Below, piece by piece: positions 22,465 to 46,014 of a stretch of DNA of 56,678 nt. The stretch is from IMG/VR virus record IMGVR_UViG_3300005830_000062, positions 1 to 56,678 of that record; one strand, given 5' to 3'. Each line of letters begins with the position of its first letter. Position 1 is the first letter of the stretch. The translations under genes and the position numbers were made by a program. The notes beneath the pieces are model-generated. The model worked only from the letters and a program-made list of their open reading frames with translations, had not been told where the DNA came from and did not search any database. The stretch is from a virus.

Positions 22465-22466
22465 GA

Positions 22467-22910
22467 TTACTGTCCTTCCTCAAACTGGACCACTACTTCA
22501 TATTCAACAGTATCCCCCGCTTCTCGGGGAAACACTCTGAAATTATGTTCAAGTGAAGTGTCAGACCAGTGAATTAGGTAAGTTCCTTCTGGAGCCTTCA
22601 TTCCCAATACACCAGGATGATTCCACATCTCTCGTAGTTGTGAGTATTGGGTAGCAGCAATTACTCCAAGTCGATCTAGAAATTTAGTCTCACAGGCGAT
22701 AGAAAAAGGTGACCACTTACGAAAACCTGGGCCGTTGTCGTAAATATACTTGAACTTACCGTTCTGATTCTTCACTACATCATACTGAACATATCTCTCT
22801 TCAGTGGGAGGCTTGTAATCTTTAGTGAAGAAAGAATAAGTAGCCGCTGCTGTGGCACCAGATGGACCGACATAGGTTGCATGGGAAAGTATCAACAAGT
22901 TTTGATTCAT
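22467..22910 (-). CDS. Distal tail protein candidate (147 aa).
   Basis: Lies immediately after the tape measure gene with a 4-nt overlap. Confidence 0.4.
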   Translation of the reverse strand: MNQNLLILSHATYVGPSGATAAATYSFFTKDYKPPTEERYVQYDVVKNQNGKFKYIYDNGPGFRKWSPFSIACETKFLDRLGVIAATQYSQLREMWNHPGVLGMKAPEGTYLIHWSDTSLEHNFRVFPREAGDTVEYEVVVQFEEGQ

Positions 22911-27853: not shown

Positions 27854-28435
27854 CTAACTCTCTCTAATCAAATCTTGAGCAGTAATCTCTTGATAAGAGA
27901 ACTCATTCCAAGCAAGCTCAGTCAAACCTTCTGCTGGGATGGAAGCTCCAATGTCACCTTCCATCTCTATAAGGGCTTTGGCTGTGTTTCTGAGTTCTCT
28001 GGCGGTGACTGAGGTGTCGAGGGTAACAGCTCCGAGACCTCCACCGCCCGCCAACGACTGGCGTTGGGCGACTTTGGATGCATCTGCTGCAATAGCAAGT
28101 AGCACCTTCGCCGCCGCGATTGTTGTATTGCCGCCTGCCGCATCGACAAAGTATTGAATCTCGGCATCACTGAATATGCTCCAATAGTAGGTGAAGTCTA
28201 CTTGAGCACTAGCTGCCGGAGTGACAGTGAAGGTCACTATCCCCTGATCTGCATCTAACGTCCAGTCAGTGTTGATTGCCCCACTGACTCTTACTTCCAG
28301 AGTGGGACTGGTGGAGATATTCCTATGACCTAGTTTGAAATACTTCTGAAGTCCATCACCTTTAGCAGTCTCTCTGGTGATCAGACTCTTATCTGAAGTA
28401 AGTAATCTGACAGCATCAATATCTCCAAGGGTCAT
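27854..28435 (-). CDS. Head-tail adaptor candidate.
   Basis: Position only. Confidence 0.35.
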   Translation of the reverse strand: MTLGDIDAVRLLTSDKSLITRETAKGDGLQKYFKLGHRNISTSPTLEVRVSGAINTDWTLDADQGIVTFTVTPAASAQVDFTYYWSIFSDAEIQYFVDAAGGNTTIAAAKVLLAIAADASKVAQRQSLAGGGGLGAVTLDTSVTARELRNTAKALIEMEGDIGASIPAEGLTELAWNEFSYQEITAQDLIRES

Positions 28436-30147
28436 GAGCTTTGCCCTTCGTTACGCTTGGGACTTCCCCAACTCTCTTGAATAGATGGGAATCCGCCATC
28501 CCTTGTACTTCCGAAGGTTGGCGAAGCATTCAACCAGTACCAGTTACCCCCAACCGCAACAAGAGGCTCGAAGACAATCCCCTGCTGAGTAATCAAGCCC
28601 ACAAGGATGATGGAGGCCTGAACCATCTCCGGTTCAAAAACTTGTCCCAGGTTCTCAATAAGCGGCGGCTGTGGACCGGCAATCAGGACGGTAGGGGCGA
28701 AAATCTGAGGTACCTGGGTAATCAGAGTCAGGGCGACTTGGGTATTGACGGAGGGGGCGAATAGTTGAACGCCGCTGGGAATCAACCCCAACTGAACTTG
28801 CTGTGCAATTATAGGATCGAAGGTGGTTCCTAGCTGTTGAATAAGAGTTGGCTGTATTGATCTGAGAATATTCGGGTCGAAGGTGACGCCCAGTTGCTGG
28901 ATCAAGCCTAATCCAAGAGGAGCATTGAGACTTGGTGCGAACACCTGGCCCAATTGACTGATCAGCTGTGGAGCGATAGCCCCAGCAACAATACTAGGTG
29001 TGAAGACCTGACCAGACTGATCTATCAGAGGTATTTGAACTTGCTGGAGAATATCTGGGGCGAAGAGCTGACCTAATTGTGAGATTAGAGCAGCCTGAAC
29101 TTGTTGATTAACCTGAGGGCTGAAGACAGTCCCCAACTGACTGATCAGCCCAAGTTGAACCTGTTGAGCCACAGATGGGGCGAATGGGGATCCAAGCTGT
29201 TGGATAAGATCTGGGGTAACAAACTGAGCTTGAAGAATAGTAGGATCGAAGACTACTCCCAAGTTAGTGATCTGACCCAGGTCTATAACATTGCCTGTAG
29301 ATGGAGCGAAGACCACCCCGAGCTGAGAAATAAGATCTGGAGTTACAAACTGGGCGCCGATGACCGTGGGTGTGAAAGTTATACCAAGTTGACTAATCAG
29401 GCCCAACTGGACCTGCTGATTGATTTGCGGCGCAAATACCGAGCCCAGTTGTGAGATTAATCCGAGTTGAACCTGTTGATTGATTTGCGGACTGAAGACG
29501 GTGCCAAGTTGAGTTACCAACCCCAATTGAATCTGTTGGTTGATTTGGGGACTGAAAACCAGACCTAAGTTAGAGATTAGGTCTGGTTTAAGTTGGCCTT
29601 GTAGAACCGTCGGCTCCAGGGCAATCCCGAGTTGCTGGATAAGAGCTGGATCCACCGCCTGGGGAACTAAGACGGTAGGATCAAAGGTTACTCCCAACTG
29701 GCTGATTAACCCAGGATCAACTTGCTGATTGATTTGGGGTGCGAATAGTGAACCGAGATTAGAAATCAGATCCGGATAAATGATCTGTGCCTGCAGAAGA
29801 CTTGGTTCTAAAGCAGTACCAAGTTGAGAGATGAGGCTCGGTAGAACTTGCTGGTTAACTTGGGGAGCGAAAGTAGTCCCTAGCTGGCTGATAAGATTAG
29901 GATATATGATCTGTGCCTGAAGTAAACTAGGTGTTAAAACAGAACCTAAATTAGAAATCAGTCCGGGATCTACTCGCTGATTGATTTGTGGGGCGAAGAT
30001 AGAGGGAGTCTGTGTGATTAGTCCAACATCAACTTGTTGATTGATTTGGGGAGCAAAAACTACACCAAGATTAGAAATGAGTCCCATCGGCCCCACAGTT
30101 TGTGGGCCTGGTGCTCCCCCACTCTGAAGTAGAGTTAGAAGAGTCAC
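28432..30147 (-). CDS. Tandem-repeat protein (571 aa) built of 25 units of 20-22 aa.
   Basis: Consensus unit LISQLGxVFAPQINQQVxLG, read 25 times in the track translation. The C-terminal ~45 aa are non-repetitive. Confidence 0.8.
   Translation of the reverse strand: MTLLTLLQSGGAPGPQTVGPMGLISNLGVVFAPQINQQVDVGLITQTPSIFAPQINQRVDPGLISNLGSVLTPSLLQAQIIYPNLISQLGTTFAPQVNQQVLPSLISQLGTALEPSLLQAQIIYPDLISNLGSLFAPQINQQVDPGLISQLGVTFDPTVLVPQAVDPALIQQLGIALEPTVLQGQLKPDLISNLGLVFSPQINQQIQLGLVTQLGTVFSPQINQQVQLGLISQLGSVFAPQINQQVQLGLISQLGITFTPTVIGAQFVTPDLISQLGVVFAPSTGNVIDLGQITNLGVVFDPTILQAQFVTPDLIQQLGSPFAPSVAQQVQLGLISQLGTVFSPQVNQQVQAALISQLGQLFAPDILQQVQIPLIDQSGQVFTPSIVAGAIAPQLISQLGQVFAPSLNAPLGLGLIQQLGVTFDPNILRSIQPTLIQQLGTTFDPIIAQQVQLGLIPSGVQLFAPSVNTQVALTLITQVPQIFAPTVLIAGPQPPLIENLGQVFEPEMVQASIILVGLITQQGIVFEPLVAVGGNWYWLNASPTFGSTRDGGFPSIQESWGSPKRNEGQSS
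28570..30087 (-). repeat. Diverged in-frame tandem repeat of 60-66 nt, about 25 copies.
   Basis: Recurrent ttgatttg(g/c)gg...gaa(g/a)ac blocks on the plus strand. The protein shows the matching periodicity. Confidence 0.8.
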
Positions 30148-30842
30148 AACTTAGATCCAATCATTAGTCGAGCAAGAGGATTGCCGCCAGCTGAAAGATC
30201 GGCTAGATTTATATCATCAACCTTAAAGTTCTTGGAAGATGAACTATCTACGTTCTGTAGAGTAAGTTGGAGTATACCAGCATTCTGAGCGTTGCCGCCC
30301 GGCGCAGTATCAGTATATTCTCGACTCCATGTTCCTGGTTCTGCATCTCCGTCTTTCCACAATCGGTAGCGACAAATAACATCAGAACCACTGTTTTCTA
30401 ATTGCCATCTAATACGAACATGGTCGCTGGTAGTAATACCTGTGAGAATACCGGTGATTGTATCAAGTGTTGTGGGTGTTCCGCCTAGATTTCGGCGGAG
30501 TGAAAGCCCGATACTCCCTGTGCTTCCAAATTGAATCTGGAACCGGTAGTAATCATTTCCAGCATTCTGATATCGAGTTTCGATGCGACAATAGGCGATA
30601 TTGCCTGCTTCAGTGAAATCATCGACTAAAACTCTCAATACGCCTTCTTGATCAGCTACCGCCGTCATAGAATCAAGTCTGGCGGCTCTGTTTGTACTAG
30701 CTGCTGTACTACAAATACCTTCAGACCCATCTACAGAGAACTCAGCAGTTCCATTAACTGTCCAAGCTCCGCCAGTGTCGGCCGTACCCCACTGATTGGT
30801 ACCCAGTGTTCTGGTAAAGGTATCTGTAGCGTAGTTCGTCAT
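30144..30842 (-). CDS. Hypothetical virion-associated protein, possibly a lectin/jelly-roll fold (232 aa).
   Basis: Beta-rich Thr/Gly/Ser sequence. Position in the accessory block. Fold is a guess. Confidence 0.35.
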   Translation of the reverse strand: MTNYATDTFTRTLGTNQWGTADTGGAWTVNGTAEFSVDGSEGICSTAASTNRAARLDSMTAVADQEGVLRVLVDDFTEAGNIAYCRIETRYQNAGNDYYRFQIQFGSTGSIGLSLRRNLGGTPTTLDTITGILTGITTSDHVRIRWQLENSGSDVICRYRLWKDGDAEPGTWSREYTDTAPGGNAQNAGILQLTLQNVDSSSSKNFKVDDINLADLSAGGNPLARLMIGSKL

Positions 30843-31543
30843 GTCGGGTAATAACCTCCCCCGACGAATGGAAAGCCTTCTGCGGGAGTAGGAGCAGAAG
30901 CTTCCCTGACTGCGATGACAGCCCAGGCGCCGTCATCTGAACTCTGCGTCCACGCGAACGTGGTCAGGGCCGCCCCGGTGCCGGTGTATAGGGCCGTCCG
31001 CCGGTTGATGACCGAGACGAAGTTGCCGAAGTCCTGGGAGTGCGACCGGGTGAGGCTGGCGTTGTCGGTGATGGACGACAGCGCGTTCTCGCCGGAGTAC
31101 AGGCCGCCGTAGAGCGCGACTACCGAGCCGCTCGGGATCGTCAGAGATGTCGTGATATTACTGATCGAGGTGCTACTGCCCTCGTCATATCCAATGTTAA
31201 TTCCGCCCGGCACCACCTCAGAGTAACCTGTCGCGCTCGTTCCATCGAACGCGGTCGCGATGTAAGCAGTCGAGCCGCTACGGGTAATTTCAACCGTTTG
31301 CGCTCCGGTTCCTGGAGCATCTATCCACCAGACCGACGTCGTGCCGGACTCGCCGCTCGTGTTGGCGCCGGTGGCGATCCGCGCCATCGAGACCCCGCCC
31401 CATGTGACGTCGGAGGTTTCCTCAACCGCTCCACCTGAAATGACGACGACGCCGTACGCCTTGTTGGCAGTGGTGGGCGACGACCAGTTGCGGGTCCCGG
31501 TTCCCGACGCGAGGTTTGTGGAGCTTCCGAGGGCGATAGTCAT
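30839..31543 (-). CDS. Hypothetical Gly/Ser/Thr-rich protein (234 aa) encoded in a high-GC island.
   Basis: Track ORF. Local GC is clearly higher than the flanks. Confidence 0.45.
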   Translation of the reverse strand: MTIALGSSTNLASGTGTRNWSSPTTANKAYGVVVISGGAVEETSDVTWGGVSMARIATGANTSGESGTTSVWWIDAPGTGAQTVEITRSGSTAYIATAFDGTSATGYSEVVPGGINIGYDEGSSTSISNITTSLTIPSGSVVALYGGLYSGENALSSITDNASLTRSHSQDFGNFVSVINRRTALYTGTGAALTTFAWTQSSDDGAWAVIAVREASAPTPAEGFPFVGGGYYPT

Positions 31544-31546
31544 CGC

Positions 31547-32863
31547 TTAGGACACCAGGTAGTACCAAACGGTGACGGTTAACGGGTTGATTGCCGCTGA
31601 GGTGGTGATCCGAAGATCAGCATCAGCTGCTCCAATGAAAGGCCCCGTCATTACAACACCGGGTTTATTGGTGCTACTTGGCGCAAACTCACCATCGAAG
31701 ATGGCCGGGGTAGTACCCCGTGAATAAGCACCAGTTCCTAAGTAGAGCTGCACCGCCCCTGCTGTGGTACCGCCGGCCTGAATCTGAACACCGGTTACAA
31801 CGATCTGTTGAGAAGCGGAGGCTGTCACCATCAAAGCGCTTGTTAGAGTTGATGTAAACTGAGCAGTGAATGAAGCTAGCTGCCAAGGAGAGCTATTCAA
31901 TCCAACATGTGGAGCATTAGCTACAACTAAAGCTCCACGTCGGTTCGCCCAGAGACCGACCATATCACCATCAGCTGACATAGCCGTCGGTTGCGCAGTG
32001 CTAGCTCTGGCTCCACTAAAGAGAGGATTACCGGCAGCGGGAACATCTACGGCAACTGGACCTACTACCTGAGCATTGAACAATGATGCGGTTGCCTGAT
32101 CAACTGTCAGAGAGCCAGCATTATCCGTTACCGGCCATGGACCTGTTCCTGCGTTGGCCGTGACCGTACCACTGACCGGCTGAGTCGCCTGCCAGAACGT
32201 ACCAGTGACCGGAACTCCACTCTGGTTAGAAGCAATCGCGACCGGCATCGAGGCAGCCATAGTAGCCTGCCCGAGGGCTGTTGGGATGCCGGGAGAATCT
32301 ACTGTCAATGAATCAGCATTATCTGTAACTGGCCACGGGCCGGTTCCGGCGTCTGCGACTATGTTTCCATCATGTTTAGTCCAAAGAGCGCCTCGGTTGT
32401 TAACTCGCAAACCGATCGCATCATCTTCAACTGGGGTTAGGGTAGCAAGTGCATCATCTCGTCGAGCTACAACTAGAGTACCGGTACCAGTAGTACCTAG
32501 AGCTGAATCCTCTGCGTACTGAGTACCGGTCGAAACGGCAGCCCCAGCCGTATCTCTAATGATAACGTTCAGGGCACCGTTCAGGGAAGCCCACAGGCCG
32601 ACAGCATCCCCATCAGCTGAAACGGCGGTGGGGAGGGCGGTAGAACCCCTGGCTCCAACATAGAGAGGATTCCCGGCCACAGCCGCGTCTGCAGCAGCTG
32701 GCCCCTGTGCCCAGAGTCCGCCAGTAGAATCGCCGTTAAGATCTACAGCTGTTCCGTCGGCGCCTAATGAAACCTTTACTCGTTGATACAGGACGCCGGG
32801 GCCTACATCGTCCGCCGCGATGGTGGCCCCAGATCCTGGAGTATATCCAACGTCATCAGCCAC
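31547..32863 (-). CDS. Fiber-like Gly/Ala/Thr-rich protein with an internal duplication (438 aa).
   Basis: AGNPL(Y/F).GAR.ST..PTA.SADGD.VGLWA...GAL.V occurs twice. (D/N)AGTGPWPVTDNA.SLTVD occurs twice. Confidence 0.5.
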   Translation of the reverse strand: MADDVGYTPGSGATIAADDVGPGVLYQRVKVSLGADGTAVDLNGDSTGGLWAQGPAAADAAVAGNPLYVGARGSTALPTAVSADGDAVGLWASLNGALNVIIRDTAGAAVSTGTQYAEDSALGTTGTGTLVVARRDDALATLTPVEDDAIGLRVNNRGALWTKHDGNIVADAGTGPWPVTDNADSLTVDSPGIPTALGQATMAASMPVAIASNQSGVPVTGTFWQATQPVSGTVTANAGTGPWPVTDNAGSLTVDQATASLFNAQVVGPVAVDVPAAGNPLFSGARASTAQPTAMSADGDMVGLWANRRGALVVANAPHVGLNSSPWQLASFTAQFTSTLTSALMVTASASQQIVVTGVQIQAGGTTAGAVQLYLGTGAYSRGTTPAIFDGEFAPSSTNKPGVVMTGPFIGAADADLRITTSAAINPLTVTVWYYLVS

Positions 32864-32866
32864 GAG

Positions 32867-33034
32867 CTATTCCTCTGGCTTTTGTTCTGGCTGTTTCTCT
32901 ATTTTTGAGTTCTCGAGAGCTTGATTTAACCGGCGAATCTCTTCTTGAAGAGCGTTCATCTGGCTACGAATTACTTCTAATTCTACAGTAGCCCGCCCAA
33001 GGAGATAGATCGCGTCGTCCGCCTTGATTTCCAT
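32867..33034 (-). CDS. Small coiled-coil protein (55 aa).
   Basis: Track ORF 32867..33085 trimmed to the ATG 1 nt after the upstream stop. Confidence 0.45.
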   Translation of the reverse strand: MEIKADDAIYLLGRATVELEVIRSQMNALQEEIRRLNQALENSKIEKQPEQKPEE

Positions 33035-33035
33035 T

Positions 33036-33461
33036 TTAGATCTGGAAGATTCCCGACCCGTTCCACTGAACAGTAACATCGGCACTATTCGGGGTGAGAG
33101 GAAGTCCAGTCGCGGTATCCCAGAAAGCGATTAGGTCTGAGGTACCTTCTGTTCCAGTATCCTTGAAGAGGATAAGACTTTCGGACTGATCACCTGTAAG
33201 GGCGGTGAAGACAGTATCAGCCGCATCTGCTACGCCGGCTCCAAGAGTACCAATCGTCTTGGATCCTAATGTTGGGCAAGTAGCAATCGCAGGAACACGG
33301 GCAGCTGAGAGGATATCTGAAATAAACTGATCAGTAGCCGCGACTGGTGTATCGTCTGCATGATCGACGAACATCGCCTTGATAGTGTCGGTATCGAAGT
33401 CACAGTGCGTACCGACACCAATGATGTTCTCTCGATATTTGCGGAAAAGGGCGTTCGCCAT
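33036..33461 (-). CDS. Hypothetical virion-associated protein (141 aa).
   Basis: Track ORF in the structural operon. Confidence 0.45.
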   Translation of the reverse strand: MANALFRKYRENIIGVGTHCDFDTDTIKAMFVDHADDTPVAATDQFISDILSAARVPAIATCPTLGSKTIGTLGAGVADAADTVFTALTGDQSESLILFKDTGTEGTSDLIAFWDTATGLPLTPNSADVTVQWNGSGIFQI

Positions 33462-33464
33462 TTC

Positions 33465-33692
33465 TTATTCCTCTTCCTTATCGACTAAACGGGCGGCCTT
33501 CAGATCGTCAAGAACAGCGAGCTCGGCATCACCTACAGGCCCGAGCCGGACAAGAGCGAGTTTCTTGTCTATCTCAAACTGAATCTCCTGAAGTTCGTTC
33601 ATGAACTTGCTATCAGATTCAGCTCGGGCTTGCATGACCTTCTGTTGAGCTTTAATCAGCCCATCTAAATCAAATGTGGTATAGTTAGCCAC
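33465..33692 (-). CDS. Small coiled-coil protein (75 aa).
   Basis: Track ORF. Confidence 0.45.
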   Translation of the reverse strand: MANYTTFDLDGLIKAQQKVMQARAESDSKFMNELQEIQFEIDKKLALVRLGPVGDAELAVLDDLKAARLVDKEEE

Positions 33693-34008
33693 TTCTGATC
33701 TCCTTGCCGGTCTGTCCTACAATATGGATGGATCCGGTTGTGAAACCCATTCTAAGAATTTGAGGGGGCGGTTTCTTAACTTCGTTACTCAATGAGAATG
33801 GTTGACCGGGGATTTTCTGAAGGAAATCCCATATCTCTGGAGAGACGATTGCAGCCCCCTCCCCATCTAAATTGATGTGATAAGTTTTATGTGTGTGAGT
33901 TCTGTGGCACTGGCCACATTCATAAGGTGTTCTATAGGGTCGATCCCCGGCGACTAGAGTGAATACACAGGTTGTTTCTACTGGGTGTGTTATCCTAATC
34001 CCGGGCAT
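33685..34008 (-). CDS. Hypothetical protein (107 aa) with a CGQCHRTHTH motif.
   Basis: Track ORF overlapping both neighbours by a few nt. Confidence 0.45.
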   Translation of the reverse strand: MPGIRITHPVETTCVFTLVAGDRPYRTPYECGQCHRTHTHKTYHINLDGEGAAIVSPEIWDFLQKIPGQPFSLSNEVKKPPPQILRMGFTTGSIHIVGQTGKEIRSG

Positions 34009-36970
34009 CAGATTTACCTAAGAAAAGCCGACTCCAAGTACTGGCAACCCCAATCCAACTTATGGCTGGGGTATTCAGTTTCACCTTTTTGTGGAGATGG
34101 GCTCTTTCCTTCAGTGGAGTACTTAGTATCTGTATCACAGCTTTCGCATATAGCTCCTGAACTTCCGGGTTCCTAACATCTTCTGAAAGAATGATCCCAG
34201 AACTAACTGTCTCTTTCAAGGCTGCTAAATGATTAGTTACTGGAATGGCCCCGCCCAATTGAGCTTCTATGGCTGTGATGCAGTAAGTCTCAGTGAAGTA
34301 AGTCGGATAAAGCCAAACCGAAGATTTCTGAAATGCTTCAGCTAGTTCCTTTTGGTTAACTCTACCATGTTGAACTACCCCGGCGGTGTTGGCTTGTGCT
34401 TCTAATACTCGTTTCTTGAAATCGGCCAGATGGGGATACATAGGCGTAAACTTGTCTATGTTATTCCATCCATAGTAAAGATGCAATTCAGCTTCGGGAA
34501 TTGCTTCTATTACCTTCGGCCAGATTGATTCTAAGATAATATCTAATCCCCTATCCTGGGACGAGGAATAGATAACCCGCAGCGGATCCCTTTTCACCGC
34601 CTTATCGAACCGGCTGAAATCTATCCCATTGGGAATGATTACCAGCTTATTTGGATCCAAGAAAGGGTAGAACTTGAGCATGTAATTACGGTGCCACTCA
34701 CTGAGAACGACGATGTGATCAAACCGGTCCGCACGTTCTTTGGTGAGACGATCACCGCAGTCGGTATCGTGCATCCACAGGATGAATCGCTTCGTGTGGA
34801 TATCCCAGTCAGCAATTTCTGGCATTCTCCAGGCGATATACAGATCCGACCTCTCTTCCGGGTCGTATCTTGAGGTATCACGGTAAGCGACTCCGTTGTA
34901 GTATCCCGGGGCATCGATGTTAGAATAAACGACCGGAAGATGGCCTTGCTCAGCAAATCCTTCAGCAAGTTTTATGATGGCAGTCTCAGAGCCACCTAAC
35001 CCGCCCGTTTCGAAGACCTTGGGATTCCAGGTCTCGGGGCTTCCCATCGCTCCTATGACTATCTTCTTATCGTATGTAGCCTGAGGCTTATAGTCACAGA
35101 ACAGCCACCCAGTTCCTTGGAAATGAGGAACTTTGTATAGACTCCAGATCCGTCCTCTTGGGGCGATTAGGGCTTCAAGGTCTCTCTCATCGAAGATCCT
35201 TACATGTCCCTTCGGCTCTAATCTATCCCACTCAGGAATTCTACCTCTTTCCCAGGATAGATAAGGAGTCGTAATCGCTATATGTTTAGCGGTCTTTTCT
35301 ACATCCGCGAGAACAAGCGCCGGGTCTACAACGTGTTCTATTACTTCGAAGAAGAGAGCCAGATCCGCTCTTTCTTCTTCCCAGGCTCCGATTTCATCAA
35401 CATTAGAGACCTCGAAACGAGCTTCCACTCCCCATTCTTTCGCTCGTAACGTAGCCAGCTCAATACATCTCGGGTCGAGGTCGTACCCTTTGACCGGGAC
35501 GCCGGTTTCTTTGGCAAGTGGGAGGGTGATGAAGCCATCAGAGCAACCCCAATCTATAATAGATTTGGCTCCGATTCTTTTGGCTACTTCTATGGCAAAT
35601 TTCAAACGAGGAAAGTTAACCCAAGCTGGATCATTAATGGCTTCTTCTGCCATCGGAGTCCAATGTGGATTTCCGGTGTAGAAATCTGCCATCGCCTTTG
35701 GATCAAAGAGATGGGAAGTCTGGAAGAGAGTTCGTTCTCTAGTCTCCTTGATCTTTGGATGATCTTCTATATGCTTAGGTAAAGCATCATAGAGTTTCCG
35801 GGCCTTCACCCATTCGTCATTTCTACCGAGTTGCTCCCTTACTAGAAGGAAAGCATCTACCACTCGTTGGAGATAGATTTCGTTTCTCAGTAGATTGATT
35901 TGTTCACCAATGGTGTCATCTGGGCGAATTTCGTATGCCTTAGAATAGTTTGCAAGAGACATCTCGTAATCACCGAGATGGGCATACGCGCCCGCGAGAA
36001 CAACTAACGGAAAGAGTGTGTAATCCAGAGGATTGACGATCAGCATGGTGTCTGGAGCTGGCTTAGTAGCTCCAGCTTTTGTCATCTCAATTACAGCTCG
36101 ATAGTTTCCCATCGCGCTGTAAGTCTCCGCAAGTCCATACCAAGCATCTGGCCATTCCGGACAGATCTGAATCGCCAAATTGTCTGTATCTATAGCCTTA
36201 GAGAATTCCCCAGAAACCCGATACATGTCAGCGATTCTGTGCATCATCTGGTAGCGTTCTTCTCGCCATCCAGAGAGCTTCACAAATCTCTGACCGTGAA
36301 GAATGGCCTCTTTGAGATTACCCCGCCCGGCATTCTCCGTACAGAGATAACCCAGAATCCTTGGATCGGGATTTGGTTCTTGTTCCGCTAGTTGATCATA
36401 GAGGATATTGAGATTGCGATCTATCTCATGCTTATCCGGCGGTTTATGATGACGAACGAAGATATTATCAACTAGTTTGGATTTAGCCGCATCAAAGTTT
36501 AGTGGAACCAGAGTTTCGTGAACTTTACCTACCCATCTCCAGCCCTTGAACTCCAATTCGTCCTGAAGACGAACAACCCGTTCTCGAACGAGATAGCAGA
36601 TACAATTATCATTCTCATCACGGGCATAATCATAGCCCATGTAGAAACTATCGAGATTAGGATGAGAACGGAGTAGTTGGCGGATATTCTCACCGCCAAC
36701 CAACTCATCGTCTCCATCTAACCACAGGAAATAGTCTCCTGTGGCTCGATCTAGAACTAGATTTCTGGCCTCTGAGAAATCGTTAGTCCACTCGATCGGA
36801 AAGATCTTGTCAGTGAATTCTCGAGCGATTTGCTCGGTGTCGTCGGTGGACTCCCCTCCAAGACCGATTACGATCTCATCTACAAAGGGAGCCACCGACT
36901 CTAAACACCGACGAAGTGTCCTACCCTCGTTACGAACAATCATACCGAGGGTGATGGAGAAGTTATCCAC
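33995..36970 (-). CDS. Four-domain enzyme: GT2 glycosyltransferase, TPR, class I SAM methyltransferase, GT4-like glycosyltransferase (991 aa).
   Basis: GT2: SITLGMIVRNE...LWLDGDDE. TPR: AWYGLAETYSAMGNY, AYAHLGDYEMSLANYSKAYEIRPDD. MT: IIDWGCSDGF...LFFEVIEHV. GT-B: GGLGGSETAIIKLAEGFAEQGH. Confidence 0.75.
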   Translation of the reverse strand: MDNFSITLGMIVRNEGRTLRRCLESVAPFVDEIVIGLGGESTDDTEQIAREFTDKIFPIEWTNDFSEARNLVLDRATGDYFLWLDGDDELVGGENIRQLLRSHPNLDSFYMGYDYARDENDNCICYLVRERVVRLQDELEFKGWRWVGKVHETLVPLNFDAAKSKLVDNIFVRHHKPPDKHEIDRNLNILYDQLAEQEPNPDPRILGYLCTENAGRGNLKEAILHGQRFVKLSGWREERYQMMHRIADMYRVSGEFSKAIDTDNLAIQICPEWPDAWYGLAETYSAMGNYRAVIEMTKAGATKPAPDTMLIVNPLDYTLFPLVVLAGAYAHLGDYEMSLANYSKAYEIRPDDTIGEQINLLRNEIYLQRVVDAFLLVREQLGRNDEWVKARKLYDALPKHIEDHPKIKETRERTLFQTSHLFDPKAMADFYTGNPHWTPMAEEAINDPAWVNFPRLKFAIEVAKRIGAKSIIDWGCSDGFITLPLAKETGVPVKGYDLDPRCIELATLRAKEWGVEARFEVSNVDEIGAWEEERADLALFFEVIEHVVDPALVLADVEKTAKHIAITTPYLSWERGRIPEWDRLEPKGHVRIFDERDLEALIAPRGRIWSLYKVPHFQGTGWLFCDYKPQATYDKKIVIGAMGSPETWNPKVFETGGLGGSETAIIKLAEGFAEQGHLPVVYSNIDAPGYYNGVAYRDTSRYDPEERSDLYIAWRMPEIADWDIHTKRFILWMHDTDCGDRLTKERADRFDHIVVLSEWHRNYMLKFYPFLDPNKLVIIPNGIDFSRFDKAVKRDPLRVIYSSSQDRGLDIILESIWPKVIEAIPEAELHLYYGWNNIDKFTPMYPHLADFKKRVLEAQANTAGVVQHGRVNQKELAEAFQKSSVWLYPTYFTETYCITAIEAQLGGAIPVTNHLAALKETVSSGIILSEDVRNPEVQELYAKAVIQILSTPLKERAHLHKKVKLNTPAISWIGVASTWSRLFLGKSDARD

Positions 36971-37026: not shown

Positions 37027-38073
37027 TTACGTGACGATTGCACCGATGATCCCGCGCCACTCGATCGGCTTGAACTGGAAGTCGTGGCGGATCTTATACT
37101 TGACTTCATCGAAATCGAACGAATACGGGTCATTTCCACCGAGAACGGCCCGAACGCCCGGATCCTTCAGCCCAACGAACGGAGTGGTGTTTCCGTTGAG
37201 AGTGATGAAGGCCAGAGGCGAAAGGCTACCCGTCGGATCGGAAAGGACGTAGTAGTTGTTCGCGTCCGTGAAGAACGGTTCAATGACGATGTTACTGAAG
37301 TGACCCCTCATCAGGTTCGCTTCAAGCTGAGACGATGCGTTCGGCAGCAGCTCGTTCTCATTGATAGCACGAGCCACGAACCGAAGTTCCGTCGGAATCA
37401 GAAGAGTCCGGTTTCCAGGAGTGACGATGGTATAACCCTCATCATCCGTGAAATCGTCGAACTTCAGGTCCAATGTCTGAAGGTTAACCGCACCTTCTGC
37501 AGTCGCCGCCAAAGCTGTGGTAACGATATTGCCGTGGTTGGCGCTGATCAGGGCATTCCCGTCGAACATCGTCGGGTTGCTCTGAAGAGCGGTGATAGCA
37601 GCTCGCTTGCTCATCGTACGAGCAAGAGCCTCGGCGAGCAGTCGCGGCAGTTCAGAGATCTGGTTCAGCCGGTCAGAAATGATCAGCTGCCGGGTCACAC
37701 TGAATGCAGCGCCCCACTCCTTGAGGCGAACCTTCTCCGCCGGGAACTCGCGAATTGCGATCTCATCGTACGGAGCGTTGAGGCCACGCTCGGGAATATC
37801 CTCAAAGCGGCCGAAGCGGCTAGAGGTATATTCCTCGAAGTCCTCAAGATCTACCTGACGTGTATACTGGTTCCAAACGCCCTGGACTTCCTCGAATCGA
37901 GAAAGGAAGCTGTGTCGAACGAGCTTTCCGAGATATGTCGGAAAGTCGCTGGTCGACATCGCCTCCTGAGCGTCCAGCAAACCAGCATCGGCGGATTCCT
38001 TCGCTTCAACGTATGCGTCGAAGAGTCGGATGCGCTTACCAACTGGCAGTCCGAGCGGATTGACAGGCGGCAC
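37027..38073 (-). CDS. Major capsid protein candidate (348 aa).
   Basis: Size and position after the scaffold and decoration-like genes. No motif verified. Confidence 0.55.
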   Translation of the reverse strand: MPPVNPLGLPVGKRIRLFDAYVEAKESADAGLLDAQEAMSTSDFPTYLGKLVRHSFLSRFEEVQGVWNQYTRQVDLEDFEEYTSSRFGRFEDIPERGLNAPYDEIAIREFPAEKVRLKEWGAAFSVTRQLIISDRLNQISELPRLLAEALARTMSKRAAITALQSNPTMFDGNALISANHGNIVTTALAATAEGAVNLQTLDLKFDDFTDDEGYTIVTPGNRTLLIPTELRFVARAINENELLPNASSQLEANLMRGHFSNIVIEPFFTDANNYYVLSDPTGSLSPLAFITLNGNTTPFVGLKDPGVRAVLGGNDPYSFDFDEVKYKIRHDFQFKPIEWRGIIGAIVT

Positions 38074-38090: not shown

Positions 38091-38483
38091 CTAGTACTGA
38101 TTCTCAGGGCCGAAGAGAACAACACGAACCTGGGTAGCCCCAGCCACAGCTGTTGCCCAAGTACGACCGATCGCCACAGCAGAAGCCGCGAGGGAGGCCG
38201 TGTTATGGAACAGCTGAAGTGTCGTTGCCTGAGTGATCGGCACTGAATAGATCTTCTTGCCTGCGTAGATAAGCGAGGCGTCGAAGAGGTTACCCTTCAG
38301 ATCCCAGACCCCGTCGAGAATCTGAACAACCGGACGGTCAGCCGCAGTAGGAGCAGATGAGAAAGCGGCGTCATCCTGGACGACTCCGTAGTACCCATCC
38401 TTGTAAACCAAATCTCCGGCCATATGACCGAGAGTTGGTGTCCACTGGCGCCGGCGACCGGCATTGACGAAAGTGCGGGCCAT
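38091..38483 (-). CDS. Head decoration-like protein (130 aa).
   Basis: A small beta-rich protein between the scaffold and capsid genes, the usual place for DUF2190-type decoration proteins. Confidence 0.4.
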   Translation of the reverse strand: MARTFVNAGRRRQWTPTLGHMAGDLVYKDGYYGVVQDDAAFSSAPTAADRPVVQILDGVWDLKGNLFDASLIYAGKKIYSVPITQATTLQLFHNTASLAASAVAIGRTWATAVAGATQVRVVLFGPENQY

Positions 38484-38515: not shown

Positions 38516-39679
38516 CTACTTCTTGTCCTTGTCAGCTTCCTTCTTGATACCGAAGGTCGCTTCCACGGACTCCATCACGCTGACGGTGGAACGGCTCTCA
38601 CCGCCACTGCCTTCAGAAGCACCCATCCCAACGATCTTAGGACCGGCGCCGGCTTCCTTGAGTTCAGCCTTGGCGTCCTCAACGGACTCCTTCACGCTGT
38701 CCTCATCATACTCAAGAGCGTCTGCGAAGAGGTTGATGAGCCGAGCCTGAGTCCGAGCCGGAAGCCCTGACTTCGAGACATACTCTCGAACCCTCTTAGT
38801 CGTCGCATCCTTCTGAGATGCCTTCTTGGTCATCTCGTCCTGAATGCTCTGGACCTGCTCCTGAACCAGCTTCTCGATCTGCTCTGCAGTCAAAGAAACT
38901 CCTTCTGTGCTATCCTTCTTATCCTCGGTGCCCTCTCCATCGTCATCAGAATCTTCACTCTCCTTGGCGAGCTCAGTACGTAACTGAGCAATCACCTGGG
39001 GAGCGTTCTCCCGAATCTGATCGAGAGTGACCTCGTTCCACTCCACGTCTTCTGCTCCTTCGCTCTCCTTGGCAAATGAGATGACCTCACCACCAGCTGA
39101 TGGGTAGACTACCCAATCAACTGAATGAACGCCGACTATCTCCTGAACGTCCTCGATAGTCTGTAAACCTTCTTTTACATACCCAACCCGGATCCGATGA
39201 TTGGCAGAAACCCCCATATAAGGCTTCGCTCGCTGAGCGTAGTCGAAGAAATCCTTATTGAAGAATTCTACCTTACCAATGATCGCATCCCGCTTAGGAT
39301 CGTAGGTGGTCTCTTCCACAGCCGAGACCATCTCCTGAAGTGATCGCTTCAGGGGCGGCTGATTGCTGTGGTTAACGAACATACGAACCCCATTATAGAT
39401 CCCTTCCTTAGCGGCTTTCCGCAAAGTAGTAGATCGATAATTCCTGGGATTCTTGGCTCGTCCAGCTTTGATGATGACGACACTGGCACTCATCTTGCCA
39501 GTTTCTTCATCGGTATGGAAGGTGGCTTCCGAGGCGTCAACTACTTCAGAGGCAAGAATCGGTCCCATACCCTCCTCTTCTGTGGCTCGCATGATCGTAG
39601 CGCAATAAGCTTTAGGATCAGACTTGCCTGAGTTCTTTCTGACACAGTCAGCGAAGTTTTTGTACCCAGCGAATGGCAT
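38516..39679 (-). CDS. Scaffold / prohead maturation protein (387 aa).
   Basis: N-terminal YKNFADCVRKN...DPKAYCATI box seen in phage scaffold/protease fusions. Acidic coiled-coil C-terminal half. Confidence 0.45.
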   Translation of the reverse strand: MPFAGYKNFADCVRKNSGKSDPKAYCATIMRATEEEGMGPILASEVVDASEATFHTDEETGKMSASVVIIKAGRAKNPRNYRSTTLRKAAKEGIYNGVRMFVNHSNQPPLKRSLQEMVSAVEETTYDPKRDAIIGKVEFFNKDFFDYAQRAKPYMGVSANHRIRVGYVKEGLQTIEDVQEIVGVHSVDWVVYPSAGGEVISFAKESEGAEDVEWNEVTLDQIRENAPQVIAQLRTELAKESEDSDDDGEGTEDKKDSTEGVSLTAEQIEKLVQEQVQSIQDEMTKKASQKDATTKRVREYVSKSGLPARTQARLINLFADALEYDEDSVKESVEDAKAELKEAGAGPKIVGMGASEGSGGESRSTVSVMESVEATFGIKKEADKDKK

Positions 39680-39694: not shown

Positions 39695-39913
39695 TTAAAC
39701 CTCCGGTTCAACGTACTTCGGATACCAGGGGCCGTGGATACGACGGATAGCACCCTTCTTGGTGAGCTGGTACTTCCCACCATTAGAAGTAGCAAAGACG
39801 AGGGTCTTCAGGTTGTAACTGATGATATCCTCGTCGATATATCCAGAACGAGAAAGGAAAACAGCCATAGGAGTATTGCGGCTCTTAGGCTTAGGGGCCG
39901 GTTCAGCAACCAT
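39695..39913 (-). CDS. Small protein (72 aa), paralog of 39924..40154.
   Basis: Track ORF trimmed to the ATG after AAGGAGG. Shared pattern FL...GY...D..S....T..F.T.NGG.Y.....G.I..I.GP. Confidence 0.5.
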   Translation of the reverse strand: MVAEPAPKPKSRNTPMAVFLSRSGYIDEDIISYNLKTLVFATSNGGKYQLTKKGAIRRIHGPWYPKYVEPEV

Positions 39914-39923
39914 TTCAGCCTCC

Positions 39924-40154
39924 TTAGATTTCGAGTCGGTCCTCAACCCCAACTGGCGGACCGCTGATATGATCGATATTCCCATCTTCACTCACGCGAT
40001 ATGTGCCGCCATTCCTAGTGAGGAAGGTACGGGTTTCATAACTCAACGAAAGGACATCTCCTGAGCCATATCCGGTAGCTTCAAGAAACTGCCGGCGGAG
40101 CTCTTCTTGCCCCTCATTCAGTCGTGGTTCTTGAAGCAGGGCGGCTAGACCCAT
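39924..40154 (-). CDS. Small protein (76 aa), paralog of 39695..39913.
   Basis: Track ORF with the start at the ATG after GGAGG. Confidence 0.5.
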   Translation of the reverse strand: MGLAALLQEPRLNEGQEELRRQFLEATGYGSGDVLSLSYETRTFLTRNGGTYRVSEDGNIDHISGPPVGVEDRLEI

Positions 40155-40872
40155 GAGCAACCTCCAGTAACAGCCCTCTCATTCTATTGGCGAGCTCCTC
40201 ATTCGGCATTGGGATGCCGGATGCGAGTTCAATCCTACAGCCACAGCGGGTGAGGCCAAGGCAGACAGAACCATCACCAGGAGCTCCGGGCAGAACAGGA
40301 AGTCCAAGCCCGCTGGTCCTTTCTCGCTGATAAGGACCTTCAAATGCAGCTCTTTGACATTCTAGGCAATGTTCTGTGTTTCCCAGTCGCCATCTATAAG
40401 GGCCGGGAGGCATTGCCTCAAGGCGGCCCCGCTCAAAGATTCCCCTGAGTGCCAGAAGATAGAGCCTGGACCTCTGGATGGGGTCCAAAGCGACTGCGTT
40501 AGAGGCCAGATCTTTCCCGAACTGACGAAGAAAACCAGTTTCCTGGCTCAACTCCTCGTCTAAAATCCGGATATCACGATCTGTTAAAGTATAGAATGGG
40601 AAGACACTAATGGCGCCTAGTGCATAGGTAACGAAGTATGCTCTTCGGATGACAGCACGGGAGCTGTTAATGAATCTTTGAACACTAATAGAATTGGAGG
40701 CAACACCATCAGTGAGACGTAAGAGGTCACGACGAAGTCGTCGGCTAGCAGCCAAGAAAGATCGCTCAATGTCTCTTCCGTCAAACGTGCCAAAGGAATC
40801 GCTTGTAGGTTGTAAGAATGGCGCAAAGGGTCGTCGAAACGAACTAAAGGAGTCATGTCGGTTTCGGACCAT
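40114..40872 (-). CDS. Head morphogenesis (MuF/SPP1 gp7-like) protein candidate.
   Basis: Follows the portal gene. Contains a GNTEHCLECQRAAFEGPY Cys box of the kind found in the MuF domain. Confidence 0.45.
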   Translation of the reverse strand: MVRNRHDSFSSFRRPFAPFLQPTSDSFGTFDGRDIERSFLAASRRLRRDLLRLTDGVASNSISVQRFINSSRAVIRRAYFVTYALGAISVFPFYTLTDRDIRILDEELSQETGFLRQFGKDLASNAVALDPIQRSRLYLLALRGIFERGRLEAMPPGPYRWRLGNTEHCLECQRAAFEGPYQRERTSGLGLPVLPGAPGDGSVCLGLTRCGCRIELASGIPMPNEELANRMRGLLLEVAHGSSRPASRTTTE

Positions 40873-42700
40873 TACTTACCTTCTCACCGCGGCCCGCTAC
40901 CAACTTCTTCATATTCGGACCCATCGCGGCGTTTGGAGTTTTTCCAGCCACCGGAGGCTTGTTGCCATTCCCATTCGCGTCATCCGAGTTGTTCAATCCA
41001 TTGAGCAAAGCCTGTTGCTGCTGCTGGCGGAGTACTTCAGCGGCAGCCGCTTCAGCCTCGACCTGGGGCATGAGCCCGTCGATATTAGGAACGCCCATGA
41101 TAGTGAGAACGGCCCGAATGGCCTGTTCACGAACCGTCATGTTATTGGGCGCGATATCCCGAACGATCTGAGCCCAAGAGGTAGTATACTTGACGATGTC
41201 CTGACTGATGATCGGCGGGAAGGAGAATCCAATCCGTTCTAGGACCTCGTGTGTGGCTTCCTCATCCTTCAAAGCCACCATCAGGACGTACTCGAACCAA
41301 TCCTTGTAGAAATCCTCGATGAATTGCTGCCAGTCCTCGTAGGACTTCACCATCGGCAATTCCATCGACTGAGCTGTGGCTAGGTTCGCGTCCCCACCCT
41401 CACCAAAGTAGTGAACCATGGTCCCAACGCCAGCACCGGCTGACATCAGGATCATTCTTGCATCTTCCTTGGCGTTAGCAGCTCCAGTGTCGGTCTTCAT
41501 CCACTCAAGATCGACGGCCTGATTGGAGTCGTAGATGGCTCCAGGGATGGGTCGAGTGAGTTTCCTAATCTCAGTACCGCTATCGCTCCCAGTATCACCA
41601 CCGACGGTCAGACCACCAAACTTACCGCCGAACTGAGCCACAGAGGTGGGTCCGCCCTTGATCTTCCTAACGTAGGATATTGCCTGAGCGGCTGAGTTGA
41701 TAGAAGCCCGGCCTTCCATGAACTCACGGAAAACCCGGAACCATTCCCTAGAGGCGTAAAGCTCTGAAAGTCCCCTCTTGCCTGACTTCGTCCAGAGCTC
41801 GTTGATCATGACATGACGGATCCTAGCCGTCTTGTCGATCTTAGCCGCCGGAATCTTAATATTCTTCTTGATATCAGCCAACATCTCGTCTGTGATGCGG
41901 TAGTCAAGATAATACTTCGATTTGGGCTGGCCTTTTGGTCGATACTGATCAGCCTGTCCGTCGTACTCCATCTCTTGGTACTGACGCTTGTAGTACACCG
42001 GGCGGAGTTTGTTATTCGGATCGTAAATGACCTGAACGATTTCTTCGAGCGGAATCTCGCTTACCTTGACGTAAGGCTCAGCTTCCCCCTCGAAACAAGC
42101 GTAGAACTTCTCCCCATCCGTCACCATCTCATCCAGCATTGTCTGCATGGTATGATGAGTAGTGAAGGCGAGCTTATTGTCCTGATCCTCCCAGAAGGCC
42201 TCAAGGATTTCTCGGCCCTGATCTGTGGCACCAACGATCTGTTCCTGTCGGGAGCGGGCTGCACGTGGAAGCTGCACGAGCTTTGTGGGGGGTGGCGGTA
42301 AGGCCGTCCCACGAGCGGGCTCCAAGTTGTTCCCGACAGGAACAGTCTCGTCCATTTCTGGCGACTCAGATTCTGGTGAAGCCAGAACCCACTGGACCCC
42401 CTTGCCAAGTGTGAATCTAACGACTAGCTTCACTGCCTGCTTGGCAAGGGGGTTGTCGTGGCGCAGTCGGCGGAGTCTCGCAAGAACTTTCTTACGATCC
42501 CCAATGGGAAGGACTTCCGCGATCTGATTGATGTCGAATAAGTTCAGATAGTCAAGATCCTCGATCTGACGCTGCAACAGTGCATTGTCAGACACGAGGT
42601 GTTCCATGGTATCTGCGAGTTCCATCCTCTCGGTCTGGAACTCCTCGATAACATCATCGAGTCCTATTAGGTTTGCGATGGCTTCCTGGATTGTATTCAC
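40853..42700 (-). CDS. Portal protein candidate (615 aa).
   Basis: Size and position directly after terminase. Confidence 0.6.
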   Translation of the reverse strand: MNTIQEAIANLIGLDDVIEEFQTERMELADTMEHLVSDNALLQRQIEDLDYLNLFDINQIAEVLPIGDRKKVLARLRRLRHDNPLAKQAVKLVVRFTLGKGVQWVLASPESESPEMDETVPVGNNLEPARGTALPPPPTKLVQLPRAARSRQEQIVGATDQGREILEAFWEDQDNKLAFTTHHTMQTMLDEMVTDGEKFYACFEGEAEPYVKVSEIPLEEIVQVIYDPNNKLRPVYYKRQYQEMEYDGQADQYRPKGQPKSKYYLDYRITDEMLADIKKNIKIPAAKIDKTARIRHVMINELWTKSGKRGLSELYASREWFRVFREFMEGRASINSAAQAISYVRKIKGGPTSVAQFGGKFGGLTVGGDTGSDSGTEIRKLTRPIPGAIYDSNQAVDLEWMKTDTGAANAKEDARMILMSAGAGVGTMVHYFGEGGDANLATAQSMELPMVKSYEDWQQFIEDFYKDWFEYVLMVALKDEEATHEVLERIGFSFPPIISQDIVKYTTSWAQIVRDIAPNNMTVREQAIRAVLTIMGVPNIDGLMPQVEAEAAAAEVLRQQQQQALLNGLNNSDDANGNGNKPPVAGKTPNAAMGPNMKKLVAGRGEKVSNGPKPT

Positions 42701-42736: not shown

Positions 42737-42937
42737 TTACTGCTCTAGATGGCAAGGTGGAGAGGCGAGGATGAGGTCCGGCTTCCAGGGTAAGTGAGTG
42801 ATGCCCAACTCTCTTACATCAAGCACAAGGTCGACCTCGAACGAGGGATCGAAGTCTACCGTGAAGACCTCATGCCCCGCCTCTCGGAATGGGTTGCTCC
42901 AACCTCCATACCCTGCGAACAGATCCAAGACCTTCAA
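42737..42937 (-). pseudogene. Truncated C5 cytosine DNA methyltransferase (N-terminal 66 aa only).
   Basis: Motif I DLFAGYGGW and motif IV ASPPC are present. A stop follows 4 codons after PPC. Only 36 nt remain before the portal start. Confidence 0.65.
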
Positions 42938-45981: not shown

Positions 45982-46014
45982 GGGACGGGATACTCTAGGG
46001 GAGTATCCCGTCCC
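45982..46014 (-). terminator. GC-rich 14-bp perfect hairpin at the edge of the high-GC island.
   Basis: GGGACGGGATACTC-taggg-GAGTATCCCGTCCC. Lies downstream of the 46175..46501 gene. Confidence 0.4.

Follow-up and report, generated by a model that had tools for sequence, protein, structure and literature searches.

Why do nine closely packed genes stand between the major capsid gene and the first connector gene of an uncultured siphovirus, and do their products work together? The question is raised by a 56,678-nucleotide viral sequence (IMG/VR record IMGVR_UViG_3300005830_000062, positions 1 to 56,678; the whole stretch is called the window below), a 56.7-kb sequence that looks like a complete phage genome. 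On its minus strand a block at 28432-36970 separates the capsid gene from the gene for p193, a protein with the predicted fold of a head-to-tail adaptor (proteins are designated here by their length in amino acids, aa). The favoured reading, held with a probability of about one half, is that the block joins an enzyme for glycosylation of virion proteins to a mosaic cassette of host-binding accessory fibres, possibly anchored at the neck. This reading starts from direct observations of gene content, domain identities, conservation pattern, distribution of modules and the fold of the adaptor.

Gene Content of the Block

The block consists of nine non-overlapping minus-strand genes for proteins of 991, 107, 75, 141, 55, 438, 234, 232 and 571 aa. 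The initial annotation had counted ten open reading frames (ORFs), which is one too many because all remaining minus-strand ORFs of at least 40 aa are embedded in these nine. Packing is tight, with intergenic gaps of -50 to +56 nt, and a scan of the block for promoters and terminators finds no internal signal above chance. The block is bounded upstream by the gene for the 348-aa major capsid protein (37027..38073, minus strand), an assignment borne out by matches to PF25209 (E 3e-31) and to phrog_4523 and phrog_133 (E 1e-40), and downstream by the p193 gene (27854..28435, minus strand).

Most features first described for individual genes hold up. Pfam domains confirm that the 991-aa protein is a fusion of glycosyltransferase (GT) and methyltransferase domains, the 141-aa protein is present as described, and the 55-aa coiled-coil protein agrees with a start at ATG 33034. 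The internal duplication of the 438-aa protein scores 174 in local alignment against 49 +/- 10 for shuffled sequences; the 234-aa gene is a GC island (GC 0.62, GC at third codon positions [GC3] 0.74, adjoining gene GC3 0.34); and the 571-aa protein comprises about 25 units of 20-22 aa. The initial remark that these proteins all lack a standard structural assignment now needs an exception, as p141 is a homologue of a solved virion protein, Bxb1 gp31.

Codon composition changes abruptly from gene to gene, with GC3 of 0.44 in p438, 0.74 in p234, 0.34 in p232 and 0.45 in p571; for reference, GC3 is 0.58-0.65 in the head genes and 0.21-0.27 in the tail-tip genes. The possibility that p234, p232 and p571 are a single frameshifted gene is made unlikely by 4-nt ATGA-type overlaps together with these GC3 values (0.74/0.34/0.45), which point to separate genes of separate origins.

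A Conserved Slot with Exchangeable Content

IMG/VR contains 16 contigs with capsid proteins 56-77% identical to that of the window. In all 14 viral contigs that extend past the capsid gene, an orthologue of the 991-aa enzyme follows directly, and the same order is found in L106 and L107, closer relatives identified through the adaptor (relatives are given by L numbers where they must be told apart). The interruption of the capsid-to-connector order noted in the initial annotation is thus common to every one of these genomes, and such identical layout in relatives shows that it is not a chance insertion. In a large protein database the enzyme has more than 100 full-length orthologues that are 44-70% identical, many on contigs of 50-62 kb, and p193 has at least 140 homologues, all at least 50% identical. 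The phages form a sizeable family of uncultured siphoviruses in which the enzyme is a core gene. The window phage itself is seen elsewhere in two short contigs only. Megablast of the 12-kb region against cultured phages gives no match, and the capsid protein is at best about 26% identical to capsids of F10-like Pseudomonas phages. A scan for the capsid protein in 185,579 species genomes is likewise empty and provides no host or prophage context.

The content of the interval between enzyme and adaptor varies from two genes (L107) to eight (window). L107 encodes a p141-like protein and a 544-aa protein with a Laminin_G_3 domain; L106 encodes proteins of 83 aa (matching the C-terminal half of p141), 147, 204 and 754 aa. 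The L005 cassette consists of a p107-like protein, a p141-like protein and a 1207-aa protein with two Laminin_G_3 domains (E 8e-38), and the L012 cassette of p141-like, 111-aa and 1349-aa proteins. The corresponding proteins are of 101, 155, 394, 163 and 1004 aa in L010 and of 105, 262, 226, 548 and 763 aa in L013; L014 has p107-like, 102-aa, p141-like, 474-aa, 106-aa and 1171-aa proteins, and L008 has p141-like, 107-aa and at least 2083-aa proteins. Among these relatives p438, p234, p232, p75 and p55 of the window have no clear counterpart, the only match being a weak one between p75 and the 102-aa ORF of L014 (E 1.6e-4); the p438 gene is absent from all close relatives. L023, which is more distantly related but shares the capsid, cement and adaptor families, has a 7.8-kb interval of fibre genes between its capsid and adaptor genes, with a p438 homologue among them.

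In the block, therefore, the slot is conserved and its content exchangeable, and two units stand side by side in it. The initial annotation treated the ten ORFs as one functional unit and proposed a comparison of synteny across the whole block; on that comparison the slot and the enzyme are kept and the fibre content is exchanged. The GT is a core gene, the fibre genes are swapped wholesale among close relatives and their codon composition is strongly unlike, and this variable content argues against a single conserved unit.

The Four-Domain Enzyme

The first gene of the slot encodes four domains in one chain. The N-terminal domain (aa 1 to about 235; 36266..36970, minus strand as for all genes of the block) is a GT2-family domain of GT-A type that matches PF00535 (E 1.7e-14, aa 10-101) and carries a DGD motif at 85-87. 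A tetratricopeptide repeat (TPR) region follows (aa ~236-440; 35651..36265), with matches to TPR_1, TPR_11, TPR_2, TPR_12 and TPR_14 at aa 241-352 (E 1e-7 to 1e-9) and weak similarity to the TPRs of OGT. Next is a class I SAM-dependent methyltransferase domain (aa ~441-625; 35096..35650; PF13489 E 7.7e-14, PF13847 E 1.7e-10, aa 467-602) with the motif I sequence IDWGCSDG at residue 472 and matches to UbiG-like O-methyltransferases. The C-terminal GT4/GT1 domain of GT-B type (aa ~626-991 plus the stop codon; 33995..35095) matches PF13439 (E 3.5e-9), PF13692 and PF00534 (aa 741-962) as well as phrog_2170 (E 2.9e-15), and contains the motif E894-x7-E902.

The best solved relatives of the N-terminal domain in the PDB are GmaR (E 3e-19) and SunS (E 1.4e-14). 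The best NCBIfam model is also that of the SunS family (E 1.6e-15), but the score of 56.9 bits is far under the TIGR04195 cut-off of 350, so the enzyme is a relative and not a member. A scan of the 991-aa protein finds no transmembrane segment, and no Gtr-type partners are found. A soluble enzyme that combines a GT-A domain with TPRs in the midst of a late structural operon is most simply read from its sequence as a protein glycosyltransferase, here of GT2-TPR-methyltransferase-GT4 architecture.

Similar arrangements occur outside the family. A tblastn search (E 1e-5) with the 991-aa protein against 50,697 phage records gives 32 matches, none of them from a Mycobacterium phage. A spring-water podovirus (MW202524) has a capsid-adjacent GT island whose enzyme is 34% identical over 80% of its length. 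In L103 the major head protein gene is followed by one for a GT2-TPR-GT4 enzyme and then by a p438-like gene, and in L019, an SU10-like phage, the order is capsid gene, epimerase, GT, p438-like gene and adaptor. A GT with a p438-type fibre after the capsid gene thus recurs in the unrelated L019/L020 and L103.

The Fibre Cassette

The most conserved component of the cassette is p141 (33036..33461), whose sequence is homologous to gp31, the tail wing arm of Bxb1 (PDB 9d93, E 6e-11 over residues 36-139; phrog_644 E 3e-32). With Corndog gp63 and JangDynasty gp60, annotated as minor tail proteins, it shares about 49% identity; these are encoded at the end of the minor-tail cluster, in JangDynasty after the tape-measure gene. 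In the window and its relatives the gene has another place, between those for capsid and adaptor and not in a minor-tail cluster after the tape measure. Homologues are present in L002, L005, L008, L012, L014, L106 and L107, with a candidate distant copy in L010 read by eye, and in at least seven unrelated loci a homologue is the neighbour of a p438-type gene. In Epa33, an F116-like Pseudomonas phage, a homologue is encoded a few genes after the capsid gene.

The fibre protein p438 (31547..32863) has a Gly/Ala/Thr-rich, internally duplicated N-terminal part and a C-terminal jelly-roll knob at residues 325-438 (nt 31550-31891), which AlphaFold models as an eight-stranded beta sandwich with pLDDT >90. 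Its family comprises at least 1605 metagenomic homologues (E <= 0.001, 90%-identity clusters), none of them named and almost none with a Pfam domain; the 50,697 phage records hold no real counterpart. Family members vary in their repeat-rich N-terminal shaft but hardly at all in the last ~170 aa. Sequence searches of the PDB with p438, both single-sequence and profile-based, give no match, nor do PDB sequence searches with p234, p232 and p571. The knob fold is also near that of many phage proteins of about 110 aa. As a separate observation, the first 31-43 residues of p438 (MADDVGYTPGSGATIAADDVG..., minus strand from 32863) share 77% identity with the start of hypothetical proteins of large Rhizobium phages and 53% with the N-terminus of one in Pseudanabaena phage Pam2, and the rest of the protein does not match; this short conserved tag may be a second attachment element.

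A census of 51 non-redundant p438-type loci, with 120 upstream neighbours classified by Pfam, was used to assess the link between p438-type fibres and glycosyltransferases, local iterative HMM searches being too insensitive. Three sugar-related genes (GT6, GT17 and an epimerase) occur among the 120 neighbours, and the p438-GT link is present in the window family, L019, L021, L024 and L103. The idea of an obligate enzyme-fibre unit was dropped since the link is not general in this census.

The adjoining p234 and p232 proteins are beta-rich modules. The Ser/Thr/Gly-rich p234 (30839..31543), encoded in the GC island, matches phrog_553, a minor tail protein family, weakly (E 2e-8) and has 214 relatives among 50%-identity representatives, some of them separate proteins and others N-terminal domains of giant ones; no cultured-phage counterpart of this type is present in the 50,697 phage records. 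It shares 72% identity with residues 1-230 of P0361, a protein of 2380 aa, and 63% with the N-terminus of a 1988-aa protein. Read by eye, P0361 carries a p234-like domain, a p232-like domain and repeats of about 20 aa in one chain, and two further p234 relatives end in tail-protein-like regions. The p232 protein (30144..30842) matches the C-terminal region of phrog_24476 (E 2e-13) and shares 28% identity with the N-terminal domain of an L037 protein of 1046 aa; in L037 the order is capsid gene, p438-type gene, p141 homologue and the gene for the 1046-aa protein with its p232-type domain. The modules p141, p438, p234 and p232 are a recurring kit, found in both tail-tip and capsid-proximal contexts.

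The initial annotation described the block as an enzyme with fibrous or lectin-like proteins. The GT fusion and the fibres agree with this, and a ConA-like lectin domain, Laminin_G_3, occupies the same position in relatives (L005, E 8e-38, and again L107); the lectin-like role of p232 in the window itself is a putative one.

The Terminal Fibre, Its Constant Tail and the Adaptor

The last gene of the cassette encodes p571 (28432..30147), which consists of ~25 repeats of 20-22 aa (LISQLGxxFxPxxNQQVxxx) followed by a C-terminal tail (aa ~535-571; nt 28435-28545). A search for DNA tandem repeats in the gene finds one short diverged array only, and such limited repetition at the DNA level indicates that the repeats are old and conserved as protein rather than a recent slippage artefact. 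There is repeat-level similarity to the giant proteins of L005 and L014, but the repeats of terminal fibres are unlike among relatives: LIDSGSAIYAPTV in L005, IASAEAVGTPTLLPGNVNI in L012, L106 and L108, and TDSITYADVATRT in L013.

The tail consists of a W-x-W motif with K/R-R-N/D-E-G some 25-40 residues on, at the extreme C-terminus. It is common to the otherwise unrelated terminal fibres of L005, L010, L012, L013, L106, L107 and L108, and a regular-expression search of all other fetched loci shows it to be confined to the window family. The p571 stop codon overlaps the start codon of the adaptor gene, an arrangement found in eight of nine family members. The cassette lies upstream of the adaptor gene and not downstream of genes for the tape measure, Dit and Tal. 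It follows the mosaic pattern of receptor-binding and tail-fibre genes, with fibrous repeats, carbohydrate-binding modules in relatives and exchange around a conserved anchor.

The AlphaFold model of p193 (pLDDT 81) finds as its best Foldseek matches in the PDB the neck chains of DT57C/T5 (8hqo_P, E 9e-5; 9ilp_a, E 5e-4; probability 1.0), with lower matches to neck entries of P74-26, T4 gp13/14 and Mycofy1; searches of the PDB by single sequence and by profile give no match. The gene precedes the other neck and tail-tube genes. The initial choice of this gene as the first connector candidate is thereby supported at fold level, since its best fold matches are T5-like neck or adaptor chains. On the strength of the model, p193 is probably a T5-type head-to-tail adaptor and a candidate docking partner of the terminal fibre.

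A Proposed Mechanism and Its Alternatives

If the favoured reading is correct, the enzyme would act in the cytoplasm late in infection. Its TPR region would hold a phage structural protein while the GT-A domain adds the first sugar, and the GT-B and methyltransferase domains would then lengthen the glycan and methylate it, with the Ser/Thr-rich repeats as plausible targets. The fibre cassette would be a hot spot of modular exchange encoding virion appendages that bind the host surface, with p141 as a small conserved arm, further small proteins as helpers, p438 forming a shaft and jelly-roll knob, p234 and p232 contributing beta modules, and p571 forming a shaft of 20-aa repeats. Because the same tail is found on unrelated fibres and the fibre gene overlaps the adaptor gene, the tail may be a constant recognition element, a handle fixing a variable fibre to a constant phage component. 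Its partner would most likely be the head-to-tail adaptor at the neck, with the TPR domain of the enzyme as an alternative or additional partner. A fuller version, which is rather doubtful as a whole, is a plug-in adhesin: the enzyme TPRs would recognize the tail, a methylated glycan would be placed on the repeats, and the tail would then dock the fibre on the adaptor to give a collar of glycosylated neck fibres. If true, such a design would allow adhesins to be exchanged freely within the family around a single enzyme and a single docking site.

Several points weigh against this interpretation. The protein substrate, the glycan, incorporation into the virion and the attachment site are inferred. 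Few of the 51 p438-type loci have a glycosyltransferase nearby, and the interval in L023 carries fibres without a GT; together these indicate that enzyme and fibres are not mutually dependent. The closest characterized homologue of p141 belongs to the tail tip and not to the neck, the tail motif is degenerate in L014, and a constant C-terminus with a variable N-terminus is the reverse of the usual polarity of tail fibres. The structural matches are also limited: TM-scores for the p193 fold are a modest 0.34-0.38, and the confident part of the p438 model is confined to the 114 residues of the knob, whose Foldseek matches (KHP40 cement protein, Pam1 chain H and the HFTV1 turret) are weak (E ~2e-3, TM 0.37-0.55).

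The homology of p141 to Bxb1 gp31 allows the cassette to be placed instead at the tail tip, as ordinary side fibres or wings of the Bxb1 type encoded upstream of the connectors, with the GT an unrelated neighbour that modifies the capsid or the tail tube. In keeping with this, Corndog-like p141 copies end the minor-tail cluster, p234-type domains head proteins whose C-termini appear by eye to be distal-tail-like, and the p438 homologue of L021 follows the tape-measure gene. However, no homologue of the gp30 base (a D-Ala-D-Ala carboxypeptidase) or the gp33 brush is found in the block: PDB sequence searches with p234, p438 and p232 retrieve no 9d93 chain, and Pfam finds no peptidase domain. The window has a separate tail-tip module after the tape measure (18046-22910), and both the position of the cassette, conserved family-wide and in L023, and the conserved overlap with the adaptor gene speak for a different site, which leaves the tail-tip placement unlikely. 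Homology to tail fibre or baseplate proteins, which the initial annotation would have taken against its own proposal, is found in part through the contexts of p141, p234 and p438; it leaves the conserved capsid-proximal position unexplained. That proposal was a capsid-surface decoration or glycan display. In such a system the fibres would sit on the head, the p438 knob could, for example, bind like a cement protein at capsid symmetry axes, and the enzyme would serve glycan or lectin display. The genes do directly follow the capsid gene in the window, L019, L023, L037 and L103, much as the phi29 head fibre gp8.5 is encoded right after its capsid gene, and the knob resembles the jelly rolls of phage cement and turret proteins noted above. 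Those matches are no better than the ones to TNF-like lectins, CBM6 and nucleoplasmin, which score equally; no block protein matches a Pfam or PHROG decoration family; and an hhalign comparison of the p438 family with the cement family of this phage (PF09956; probability 0.1%) rejects a paralogous relation of the knob to the cement protein. Moreover, p234-type modules are fused to tail-like proteins (by eye), one p438 homologue follows a tape-measure gene and five p438-type loci follow an SU10-type adaptor, and in podoviruses tail genes simply begin after the capsid gene. Placement on the capsid surface does not follow from these data, nor is it favoured over the neck or tail tip, because the closest characterized homologue, that of p141, is a tail accessory protein, and decoration of the head is accordingly judged unlikely.

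It is also conceivable that the enzyme acts on phage DNA or, for serotype conversion or superinfection exclusion, on a host surface polysaccharide, and that the block is a moron-type accessory region. PHROGs places the matching families in the class 'moron, auxiliary metabolic gene and host takeover', the JGI name of the orthologues is 'glycosyltransferase involved in cell wall biosynthesis', and many temperate phages carry O-antigen-modifying glycosyltransferases. The absence of a membrane segment and of Gtr-type partners in the searches described above, the location well inside the late structural operon without a separate promoter or terminator signal, the status of a family core gene rather than a variable one, and a TPR region in an enzyme whose nearest solved relatives glycosylate proteins or peptides all make this explanation very improbable.

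Relation to Known Systems

Virion glycosylation has reportedly been described for actinobacteriophages by Freeman et al. in 2023 (Cell Host Microbe 31:1216, as cited in PMC13313380). The virion operon of the mycobacteriophage Corndog contains genes for an O-methyltransferase and glycosyltransferases next to the head genes; these enzymes are not found in virions, and structural proteins have been suggested as their targets (Cresawn et al., 2015; PMC4351075). The window resembles these mycobacteriophages (Corndog, Cluster O; Che8, Cluster F) in having glycosyltransferase and methyltransferase functions inside the virion operon, and Corndog also carries a p141 homologue, gp63. In contrast to the mycobacteriophage enzymes, that of the window is a single four-domain polypeptide with TPRs and has no detectable sequence relation to them, and the p141 homologue of Corndog lies in the tail-tip cluster, not beside the enzyme. 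The Corndog minor tail group that holds this homologue, gp58-gp67, is found in purified virions (PMC4351075).

Closer parallels to the N-terminal half of the enzyme are GmaR, the flagellin O-GlcNAc transferase of Listeria, and the peptide S-/O-glycosyltransferases SunS and ThuS, soluble enzymes in which a GT-A domain with a DxD motif is followed by TPR-type repeats. In GmaR and in SunS/ThuS this helical-repeat region binds the substrate. The window enzyme differs from them by its additional methyltransferase and GT-B domains and by its score of 57 bits against the SunS cut-off of 350.

In the tail wing of Bxb1, the gp30 base binds the tail spike and carries the arm gp31 and the brush gp33; the gene for the base can be deleted (PMC12646305). 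The cassette shares with this wing (PDB 9d93) the arm homologue p141, and the non-essential, accessory nature of the wing fits a cassette that varies freely among relatives. It differs from the wing in the lack of a detected base or brush homologue, in its location between the capsid and adaptor genes, and in the partners of p141, which are p438-type and repeat fibres. The T4 fibritin gene wac, which encodes a non-essential fibre, adjoins genes 13 and 14, just upstream of a neck gene. Fibritin and phi29 gp8.5 are positional analogues only, as the fibres have no similarity in sequence or fold, and fibritin is anchored by its N-terminus in contrast to the conserved C-terminus seen here. In the bacterial systems AIDA-I/Aah, TibA/TibC and HMW1/HMW1C a transferase gene adjoins the gene for an adhesin built of imperfect repeats of ~19-20 aa; the analogy is purely functional, and the enzyme families and the setting, bacterial secretion, are different.

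Other Features of the Window and Its Relatives

The three smallest proteins of the block have no family matches. The Cys/His-rich p107 (33685..34008), whose gene overlaps the GT stop codon by 14 nt, has none in Pfam, PHROG or NCBIfam searches; homologues that are 42-44% identical directly follow the GT in L005 and L014. The acidic p75 (33465..33692) reads as helical, gives no match in family searches and may be an assembly helper; small coiled-coil-looking ORFs occupy the same position in L010 and L014. For the coiled-coil-looking p55 (32867..33034), which is without a match in a family search, the longest ORF is of 72 aa and reaches 33085, but the likely start is ATG 33034, directly after the p141 stop codon, giving 55 aa.

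Outside the block, the late operon on the minus strand runs in the order large terminase (42934-44355), portal (40853-42700), protease/scaffold (38516-39679), cement protein (38091-38483, PF09956) and capsid protein, followed by the block. On its 3' side the order is p193, p179, p196, an Ig-domain protein (p208) that is probably the tail tube, p176, an 831-aa protein of tape-measure size and a low-GC tail-tip module (18046-22910). The plus strand carries replication genes for a RepB-primase/AAA_25 protein, an SNF2 helicase, a UDG-exonuclease-PolA fusion and a PD-(D/E)XK nuclease. The fusion is an 804-aa DNA polymerase A (10952-13366, plus strand) with an N-terminal domain of the uracil-DNA-glycosylase superfamily (PF03167, E 4e-32), a 3'-5' exonuclease and the polymerase in one chain. 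A RuvB-like AAA+ ATPase (51460-52410, minus strand; RuvB_N E 6e-42, and RuvB_C) has no obvious RuvA nearby; such an ATPase is probably uncommon for a siphovirus of 57 kb.

The tail-tip module, which encodes p147, p227, p854 and p303 on the minus strand, has a GC content of 0.38-0.43 and GC3 of 0.21-0.37, compared with 0.58-0.65 in the head genes. PHROG searches find no match for p147, p854 and p303 and a weak one for p227, and Pfam finds none for p854 and p303. The module looks like a second, independently acquired set of host-recognition genes. Adjacent genes for tRNA-Leu(TAA) and tRNA-Ile(TAT) (15727-15887, plus strand) lie at the junction of the plus- and minus-strand gene blocks; both tRNAs decode A-ending codons, which fits the AT-rich tail-tip genes. 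The genome as a whole has about 50% GC, and the intervals 1-1000 and 46000-47000 reach 0.64-0.66; the ORF at 199-1260 has no match in Pfam.

Relatives show further local differences. The p98 gene of the window (39695-39991), upstream of the protease gene, has two adjacent matches in most of L001-L015, which suggests a tandem duplication in most relatives. A reverse-strand Endonuclease VII gene in L108 (6154-6570), just upstream of a 794-aa gene of tape-measure size and absent from the window, looks like the insertion of a mobile nuclease. In the 99-kb contig L023, a 5869-aa protein with NUDIX and faint kinase-like matches is encoded just upstream of the head genes (1-1399).

Significance

The themes of virion glycosylation and mosaic fibres are known. 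What is new here is that a TPR glycosyltransferase of four domains belongs to the core genes of a whole family and that an exchange slot for fibres with a putative C-terminal anchor precedes the adaptor gene. Virion glycosylation has so far been studied experimentally mainly in actinobacteriophages, where it alters recognition by antibodies. A distinct single-chain TPR enzyme is a core gene of this abundant family of uncultured siphoviruses, and capsid-adjacent GT islands occur in at least three other lineages; this suggests that cultured phages under-represent how widespread virion glycosylation is. The cassette also brings to light two large protein families, of the p438 and p234 types, that are without a cultured-phage counterpart in the 50,697 phage records, and an unusual design for adhesin exchange, in which the constant part of the fibre is its C-terminal tail and the end of its gene runs into the start of the adaptor gene. 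If the anchor site and the substrate are established, the system would provide a testable model for how siphoviruses gain and swap accessory fibres, and could supply parts for engineering phage host range or immune visibility.

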